A DNA stretch of 56,311 nt from Oligoflexia bacterium (GTDB taxonomy: Bacteria > Bdellovibrionota > Bacteriovoracia > Bacteriovoracales > Bacteriovoracaceae). This document shows positions 55,470-55,708 of this stretch, one piece after another (within the stretch, counting starts at the first letter, position 1; every line of letters begins with the position of its first letter). A program made the position numbers and the translations under genes. The notes under the pieces were generated by a model that searched no databases, was not told the origin of the DNA, and saw only the letters and a program-made list of their open reading frames with translations. The DNA is taken from positions 1 to 56,311 of the forward strand of contig JADGBS010000003.1 of NCBI GenBank assembly GCA_015231325.1, written 5' to 3'.

Positions 55470-55513
55470 AAAAAAGGCCACAATTGCTGACCTACCTAGT
55501 CAGGTTTGTGGCC
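55470..55513 (-). terminator. Intrinsic terminator oriented for the minus strand
   Basis: GGCCACAA (55476-83) pairs with TTGTGGCC (55506-13), and the inner stem is CTGAC/GTCAG. The A6 run at 55470-75 gives U6 after the hairpin only on the minus-strand transcript. Confidence 0.75.
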
Positions 55514-55682
55514 TATGCTTTGGGTGGACGGACTCTAATCCTTGATTTTTTTAGTCTTGTTTGCCGCGATTTTAATCGGGCAAATTTAACAAAACACTTC
55601 ACTACGATCGCGTCCTAACTCCTACACCTGCATCTATGTCAACTCCTCTTTGGGGCCTCCTCGGACTTCCTCAGGTTTCTAA
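55470..55682 (-). ncRNA. Candidate sigma-54-dependent small RNA (~210 nt) with six AGGA motifs
   Basis: Bounded by the sigma-54 promoter (predicted +1 near 55682) and the minus-oriented terminator. No ORF is present. GGA occurs at 55670-68, 55660-58, 55646-44, 55622-20, 55615-13 and 55541-39, each preceded by A. An internal hairpin lies at 55561-55583. Confidence 0.5.
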
Positions 55683-55692
55683 TAAATTTATT

Positions 55693-55708
55693 AGCAAGAA
55701 GCGTGCCA
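55693..55708 (-). promoter_or_regulatory. Sigma-54 (RpoN) promoter
   Basis: The minus strand reads TGGCACG-cttc-TTGCT, which matches TGGCACG-N4-TTGCW at every specified position. It is the only such match I found in the window. Confidence 0.65.

Follow-up and report, generated by a model that had tools for sequence, protein, structure and literature searches.

What is encoded in the long gap between a solute-binding protein (SBP) gene and serS on a contig from an Oligoflexia bacterium? The window, that is, the whole stretch of DNA analysed here, is one contig of 56,311 nt with a G+C content of 40.8%. Both genes flanking the gap are on the plus strand, the SBP gene ending with its stop codon at 55455 and serS beginning with its ATG at 55911. 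An earlier note on this DNA had described the resulting 455-nt gap as containing no open reading frame (ORF) of 60 residues or more, and this is the case, the largest ORF touching it being 55 residues long. The same note read the minus strand of the gap as a sigma-54-driven RNA resembling the CsrA/Rsm sponges. One part of that reading stands: a self-contained minus-strand unit is backed by statistics, by a palindrome and by an upstream repeat, whereas the CsrA/Rsm sponge is unsupported. We describe the element as a probable orphan sigma-54-dependent small RNA, a prediction made from one sequence in a singleton metagenomic contig. Its promoter, transcript and candidate control sites are:

55693–55708, minus strand: sigma-54 −24/−12 element TGGCACGcttcTTGCT, an exact match to TGGCACG-N4-TTGCW
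55470–55683, minus strand: predicted primary transcript of ~214 nt, with promoter and terminator correctly ordered on one strand
55679–55694, either strand: perfect 16-bp palindrome CTAATAAATTTATTAG, candidate operator for a dimeric DNA-binding protein
55837–55879, either strand: 43-bp inverted repeat GCTGACAGTACTG / CAGTACTGACTGC, candidate upstream activator site, by position only

The word TGGCACGCTTCTTGCT at 55708–55693 (minus strand) is the sole match to TGGCACG-N4-TTGCW in the window, even with one mismatch, and exact matches are expected 0.012 times per window (2000 dinucleotide-preserving shuffles, both strands). The second-best sigma-54 site of the window, at 10/11, is located within groEL. 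The promoter features tested (GG at −24, GC at −12 and the fixed spacing between them) are all present, and the consensus is matched at every specified position, exactly and at this site alone. The spacing from the −12 element places the predicted start of transcription at 55683 ± 2. No sigma-28 promoter (Bdellovibrio-type motif) was found in the gap, and there is no good sigma-70 promoter for the unit, the best sigma-70-like site (9/12) being located upstream, at 55792–55763. The sigma factor itself is present in the phylum, where rpoN is known from B. bacteriovorus (bd0843) and from B. marinus (PMC3464611, PMC3526173).

Two further elements are positioned as regulatory sites of this promoter. 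The palindrome CTAATAAATTTATTAG starts at the C of the −12 GC and reaches about +4. No perfect palindrome without a spacer is longer anywhere in the 56-kb window, the five others of at least 14 bp being all 14 bp long. Its position over −12/+4 is a classic operator location. The inverted repeat at 55837–55879 has 13-nt arms and lies ~155–195 bp upstream of the predicted start; sites for bacterial enhancer-binding proteins (bEBPs) are typically found ~80–200 bp upstream of sigma-54 promoters. The arms flank an exact tandem 11-mer, TGATGATGCAG ×2, reported by Tandem Repeats Finder as a period-11 array with 100% matches, and the repeat also contains the 8-bp palindrome CAGTACTG twice, at a spacing of 25 bp. 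Its exact words occur nowhere else in the window. The repeat could thus suit an enhancer-binding protein; it carries no known motif, is also located 30–75 bp upstream of the serS ATG, and might equally serve a serS promoter. With the palindrome over −12/+4 and the repeat upstream, the promoter has the appearance of a regulatory site that has been maintained.

A looser array of CTGAC/CTGAT words covers 55830–55887, between the small-RNA promoter and serS, and could be used by either promoter. A similar word, TATACTGAC, is found at 54272. In the M36-like ORF described further below, as that ORF is listed, this is among the first codons; the word would be upstream of the gene only if translation started at the internal ATG at 54256.

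The 3′ end and the fold of the RNA are defined by two hairpins:

55470–55514, minus strand: intrinsic terminator, with a 9-bp outer and a 6-bp inner stem followed by U6
55561–55583, minus strand: internal hairpin UUGCCCGAU-UAAA-AUCGCGGCAA, in the minimum free energy (MFE) and centroid folds, with a pairing probability near 1

The terminator stem, AGGCCACAA/TTGTGGCCT at 55514–55475, has a predicted stability of −21.8 kcal/mol and leads into the U6 tract at 55475–55470. A terminator scan flags the hairpin on the minus strand only, the 3′ side on the plus strand being UAUGCUUUGGG, a poor U-tract; the description of a strong hairpin whose U-tract exists on one strand is thus borne out. No minus-strand protein gene requiring such a terminator is found upstream, where serS, like the SBP gene, is on the plus strand. 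The internal hairpin, which had also been noted previously, is stable in both folds, and the 219-nt stretch as a whole has an MFE of −59.8 kcal/mol (z = −2.9 against 200 shuffles). Because an exact promoter, a strand-specific terminator, the palindrome, the repeat array and an unusually stable fold coincide within one intergenic gap, a regulated non-coding minus-strand transcript is the best reading of the locus. That the gap contains an independent, tightly regulated unit transcribed as a non-coding RNA has, in our estimate from the sequence, somewhat better than an even chance of being correct.

How might such an RNA work? Its most visible feature is a series of AGGA boxes, distributed over two regions:

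55613–55672, minus strand: purine-rich 5′ arm with the Shine–Dalgarno (SD)-like words GAGGAAG, GAGGAGG, GAGGAGU, UAGGAGU and UAGGAC
55539–55542, minus strand: sixth AGGA, in the context AUCAAGGAUUA, within an A-rich linker

The six boxes start, on the minus strand, at 55671, 55661, 55647, 55623, 55616 and 55542, where the earlier note had located them. That note expected fewer than one AGGA by chance. This holds for the window-wide frequency, from which 0.89 are expected per 215 nt, but not for the local composition, as the stretch is purine-rich: dinucleotide shuffles of the transcript yield 1.84, against the 6 observed (P = 0.004). The enrichment is therefore moderate, about 3-fold over local composition instead of more than 6-fold. 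It is concentrated at the 5′ end, where the first 75 nt hold 5 AGGA compared with 1.43 in local dinucleotide shuffles (P = 0.004). No other non-coding stretch of 140 nt in the window reaches six AGGA. A second AGGA-rich stretch (27118–26930, minus strand), considered as a possible copy, turned out to consist of the fliN SD GGAGGAGGA and the Gly-rich N-terminal coding sequence of that gene.

All six GGA trinucleotides of the RNA lie within the AGGA boxes, giving 6 in 214 nt or 2.8 per 100 nt, where 3.1 would be expected from the window. Known CsrA sponges have about 5–7 GGA per 100 nt, roughly twice the density of the candidate. The sixth box (CAAGGAU) is, we take it, the nearest of the six to CARGGAU, the core selected by CsrA in SELEX (systematic evolution of ligands by exponential enrichment) experiments. 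Its A, G, G and A have unpaired probabilities of 0.74, 0.99, 0.47 and 0.07, and in the partition function boxes 1, 2 and 6 are partly open; these values come from single-sequence fold predictions, which are unreliable.

A mechanism compatible with these features can be proposed. RNA polymerase–sigma-54 would rest on the promoter as a closed complex, to be opened by an enhancer-binding ATPase possibly acting from the inverted repeat at 55837–55879, and a second, dimeric protein may bind the 16-bp palindrome over −12/+4 and block the promoter. The transcript would begin near 55683 and end at the U6 tract at 55470, and the RNA would act in trans. Its 5′ arm, which packs five SD-like AGGA(G) boxes into 60 nt, and the CAAGGAU box would mimic ribosome-binding sites and titrate a GGA-binding factor, while the internal hairpin, the A-rich linker and the terminator would confer stability. 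The decoy was chosen as mechanism because the AGGA(G) array is the only distinctive surface of the RNA. If the unit is transcribed, a decoy for a GGA-binding factor would be the likeliest single mechanism, although we hold it tentatively and would expect it to fail more often than to succeed. It is rated low even for a transcribed unit because half of the boxes are hidden in the predicted fold, the GGA density is about half that of the sponges, there is no match to a Csr/Rsm model, there is no GacA box, and the sponges have so far been gammaproteobacterial, with FliW as the antagonist elsewhere. Taken together with the uncertainty over transcription itself, the decoy becomes quite unlikely. 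CsrA is the only known candidate for the GGA-binding factor in this phylum, and it is present and experimentally active in Bdellovibrionota (PMC13443453). In its boldest version, the proposal would make the RNA the first one outside the Gammaproteobacteria to titrate CsrA, a decoy switched by sigma-54 and a bEBP and carrying mimics of ribosome-binding sites, in a predatory lineage of Bdellovibrionota with FliW as its usual means of control; this we regard as a long shot.

A number of observations weigh against the small RNA, its decoy function or both. The promoter match is a single site, singled out by scanning many windows. The terminator hairpin may be the SBP gene's own. None of rpoN, a bEBP gene, csrA and hfq is encoded within the 56-kb window. 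The GG of boxes 3–5 are at least 96% paired according to the partition function, partly with the 3′ GAGUCCGUCCACC, and no AGGA box is located in a hairpin loop of the MFE fold. The GacA/UvrY box TGTAAG-N6-CTTACA does not occur in the intergenic region, even with 3 mismatches. A search with 4227 Rfam models, run at the gathering score and then at E ≤ 10 with permissive filters, found no match to the candidate region at the gathering score; at E ≤ 10 it returned only noise with E > 1 (for example snoRNAs, RefA9 and narK) and no Csr/Rsm model. Readings of the unit as 6S RNA, a T-box, a riboswitch, transfer-messenger RNA or signal recognition particle RNA were discarded, as no Rfam model for any of these matched. 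The known CsrA sponges are confined to Gammaproteobacteria, and flagellated lineages outside that class use FliW (PMC13443453; PMC4894983). Finally, no homologue was found in 21 loci from metagenome-assembled genomes (MAGs), 103 metagenome loci, 5 homologue-neighbourhood loci, plasmids or phages. The earlier statement that the RNA matches no known family is upheld by the covariance-model search. As for the sponge, the missing Csr/Rsm model and GacA box, the three paired boxes and the low GGA density leave it unsupported, yet not refuted, given the 5 AGGA in the 5′ 75 nt, the active CsrA of Bdellovibrionota (PMC13443453) and the unreliability of folds predicted from one sequence.

The missing homologues, looked for in 128 fetched loci and in plasmid and phage collections, have to be read together with the depth of the lineage. 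Among 5.8 billion proteins, the nearest SerS N-terminus is 42% identical, and on that contig tilS is found 90 nt upstream; the nearest SBP homologues are 44% and 37% identical and are followed by other genes 33–82 nt downstream. Across the 21 MAG loci there was no serS, no SBP gene and no blastn match to the candidate RNA with its promoter. Collection scans for the candidate used exact patterns only, and the plasmid and phage collections gave no match. The full intergenic region, used as an nhmmer query, found nothing in ~0.96 Mb of fetched loci and no paralogue in the window, and blastn found nothing in the same set. With the nearest relatives only 32–44% identical and the gene order not preserved, comparative analysis is defeated by the depth of the lineage.

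Other explanations of the same features were considered. The locus might have no RNA function at all, the promoter being a chance match or, with its leader, the relic of a lost sigma-54-dependent gene; the AGGAG boxes and a 3-codon ATG ORF would then be relics too, and the hairpin a bidirectional terminator of the SBP gene. The hairpin begins 20 nt past the SBP stop codon, and AGAGGAGUUGACAUAGAUG resembles an SD and a start at the −13 spacing of this genome yet opens an ORF of 3 codons. Moreover, a metagenome scan for a sigma-54 promoter followed by 10–40 nt, GAGGA, 3–12 nt and GAGGAG returned at least 103 loci, nearly all of which are mRNA leaders into ORFs, on GC-rich contigs, making a sigma-54 promoter with two GAGGA(G) boxes a common form of mRNA leader. 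One of them, L114 (an unrelated metagenome contig with 44.7% G+C), has a 16-mer promoter identical to TGGCACGCTTCTTGCT, followed by a duplicated GAGGAGTTGGAAT box (253–340) and a gene for a 332-aa secreted protein. However, beyond the promoter L114 shares only the 11-mer AAGAGGAGTTG with the candidate, and this word was partly demanded by the search pattern. Against a chance or relic promoter stand the exact match at 12/12 specified bases, with its expectation of 0.012 per window, the presence of the longest palindrome of the window on −12/+4 together with the upstream repeat array, and the canonical U6 tract, which is on the minus strand and not on that of the SBP gene. There is also no protein-like remnant in the unit, a tblastn search with the L114 protein giving only E > 1. 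We consider the absence of an RNA function unlikely, while granting it an appreciable chance. Alternatively, the RNA could be a base-pairing sigma-54-dependent small RNA like Qrr or Pxr, in which the AGGA boxes are structural and pair with GUCC, GCCCC and GAGUCCGUCCACCC of the same molecule, and mRNAs are contacted through another single-stranded stretch, which may be the 5′ AUUAGAAA, or the A-rich linker, or the CCCAAAGCAUA that precedes the terminator. Most terminator-bounded small RNAs act by pairing. In agreement with this, boxes 3–5 are paired in the ensemble with a UCC-rich segment on the 3′ side, the fold is more stable than usual, and the terminator U-tail with its adjacent A/U-rich single strand is like that of Hfq-type small RNAs. 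A duplex scan against 36 start regions of the window, on the other hand, did no better than shuffles (33% did as well), and no conserved seed can be defined without homologues. We hold a pairing function to be doubtful, with a chance that is small but worth keeping in view.

The remaining alternative concerns the coding capacity of the transcript, in which the earlier note had seen only a 3-codon ATG ORF. This ORF exists, but a longer one with a GTG start had been missed:

55622–55633, minus strand: mini-ORF ATG CAG GTG TAG (MQV and stop), with GGAG at −13, read from the sequence
55513–55602, minus strand: 29-aa GTG ORF MKCFVKFARLKSRQTRLKKSRIRVRPPKA, very basic (isoelectric point > 12), with GGA at −13 and a stop codon abutting the terminator

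The transcript might encode a very small basic protein, either as a plain mRNA or as an RNA with two functions, and the upstream AGGA boxes and the MQV mini-ORF would then serve in translational control. The −13 spacing of the MQV ATG and of the 29-aa GTG is that of serS and several other genes of the window, and a stop codon next to the terminator, as in the 29-aa ORF, is found in many small genes. The codon usage of the ORF speaks against it: trained on the genes of the window, it gives a log-likelihood of −1.5, compared with means of +3.9 for true gene segments and −0.5 for stop-free non-coding segments, and just 3.7% of the true gene segments fall at or below this value. In addition, a 30-codon stop-free run is, by estimate, not rare in 215 nt, the SD of the ORF is fully paired in the predicted fold, and with five AGGA boxes in 70 nt one of them is expected upstream of some start codon. 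No Pfam or NCBIfam family matches the ORF. Because it scores as non-coding by codon usage and matches no family, we regard the unit as non-coding, a tiny peptide still being possible; that the 29-aa ORF is what the transcript exists to express we consider very improbable.

The favoured reading, a sigma-54-dependent non-coding RNA with a candidate decoy arm, can be compared with several known systems. In architecture it resembles Qrr1–5 of Vibrio and Pxr of Myxococcus, which likewise have a sigma-54 promoter and are short, terminator-bounded, ORF-less intergenic RNAs; an upstream activator site is plausible here as well. Pxr comes from the former 'deltaproteobacterial' predator lineage, as does the phylum of the candidate. 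Qrr and Pxr are roughly 100–110 nt long. The candidate, at 214 nt, is about twice as long, has no Rfam match, and is without an adjacent bEBP gene, a conserved seed or paralogues in the window. With Qrr, Pxr, GlmY and CrcZ it shares a sigma-54-dependent mode of expression, and it matches none of their Rfam models. CrcZ and CrcY of Pseudomonas offer a precedent for the combination of a sigma-54 promoter, a repeated short motif and protein titration. They depend on RpoN and CbrB, and CrcZ is ~400 nt long, with A-rich CA motifs, not AGGA, binding Hfq/Crc.

The resemblance to CsrB, CsrC, RsmX, RsmY and RsmZ consists of several (A)GGA boxes in a non-coding RNA with an intrinsic terminator, and the 5′ arm, with 5 boxes in 75 nt, has the local density of a sponge. 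In contrast to these sponges, the candidate matches none of their models, has no GacA/UvrY box, and has boxes that are predicted to be mostly paired and not in hairpin loops. Its promoter is of the sigma-54 type, and it belongs to a phylum in which no sponge RNA is known and FliW is the expected CsrA antagonist. A second resemblance is to the flaA/hag-type leaders of Campylobacter and Bacillus, FliW-type bacteria in which these leaders are both controlled by CsrA and able to titrate it, and in which AGGA boxes overlapping the SD follow a flagellar-type alternative-sigma promoter in a flagellated host, as in the candidate; the flagellin mRNA of C. jejuni is described as dual-function (PMC4894983). 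Unlike those leaders, the candidate leader is followed by no gene, and the best SD belongs to an ATG whose ORF has 3 codons. SD-like tandem repeats 3′ of sigma-54 promoters were also seen among the metagenome loci, with GTGAGGAGG present four times in L059 (~170–221) and repeats of ACACAGAGGAGCTTT in L113. Such arrays following a sigma-54 promoter may be a recurring leader design. Within the phylum, the small RNAs APsRNA1–8 of B. bacteriovorus are, like the candidate, intergenic and about 100–200 nt long (PMC3627812). Three of the eight have the motif of a FliA (sigma-28) promoter, which is absent from the candidate, and the study reports no sigma-54 promoter for these RNAs (PMC3627812).

If the unit is transcribed, it would be a sigma-54-controlled riboregulator in a predator phylum whose post-transcriptional control is almost unexplored; the only reports that we found for the phylum concern the eight attack-phase small RNAs (PMC3627812) and a validated but uncharacterised CsrA (PMC13443453). 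If, in addition, the AGGA arm binds CsrA, RNA sponges for this protein would not be a gammaproteobacterial speciality, and sponge-RNA control of CsrA would have arisen independently and been wired to a different signalling input. The candidate is well defined, with one promoter, one terminator, six boxes that can be altered by point mutation, and a candidate operator.

The genes of the window are informative about the host, which is a flagellated, deep-branching member of Bdellovibrionota, as indicated by the matches of an M36-like protease together with fliN and other window genes. The two genes next to the unit and the two RNA genes of the window are located as follows:

54613–55455, plus strand: SBP gene, with a weak Pfam SBP_bac_3 match
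55911 (ATG), plus strand: serS, its start placed by the Seryl_tRNA_N match and the sequence
46403–46804: RNase P RNA, at the Rfam gathering score
50579–50652: tRNA, at the Rfam gathering score

The protease is a 906-aa secreted protein encoded at 51649–54369 (minus strand), which has a weak match to M36 fungalysin-like metallopeptidases and is flanked by two SBP_bac_3 paralogues. Scanning the genome collection for its relatives returned at least 21 loci with 32–38% identity, most of them from MAGs labelled Bdellovibrionales, Bacteriovoracaceae, Halobacteriovoraceae, Pseudobdellovibrionaceae or Pseudobacteriovorax; the remaining loci carry only the broad labels Proteobacteria, Deltaproteobacteria, Pseudomonadota or 'bacterium'. 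The 906-aa protein is possibly a predatory protease typical of the lineage. Proteins of the window are singletons in the collection of 5.8 billion proteins, and the lineage is deep and poorly sampled.

Besides fliN, the window encodes a lipopolysaccharide heptosyltransferase and a MoxR/DUF58/VWA cluster. The only Rfam matches at the gathering score are the RNase P RNA, of the bacterial class A type (193.8 bits), and the one tRNA. Finally, between rpsD and fliN, but on the other strand, there is a 102-aa ORF (27182–27490, plus strand) that contains IIGRGSNADIKV and LTDLGSVNGTKV; judged by eye, its product looks FHA-domain-like.

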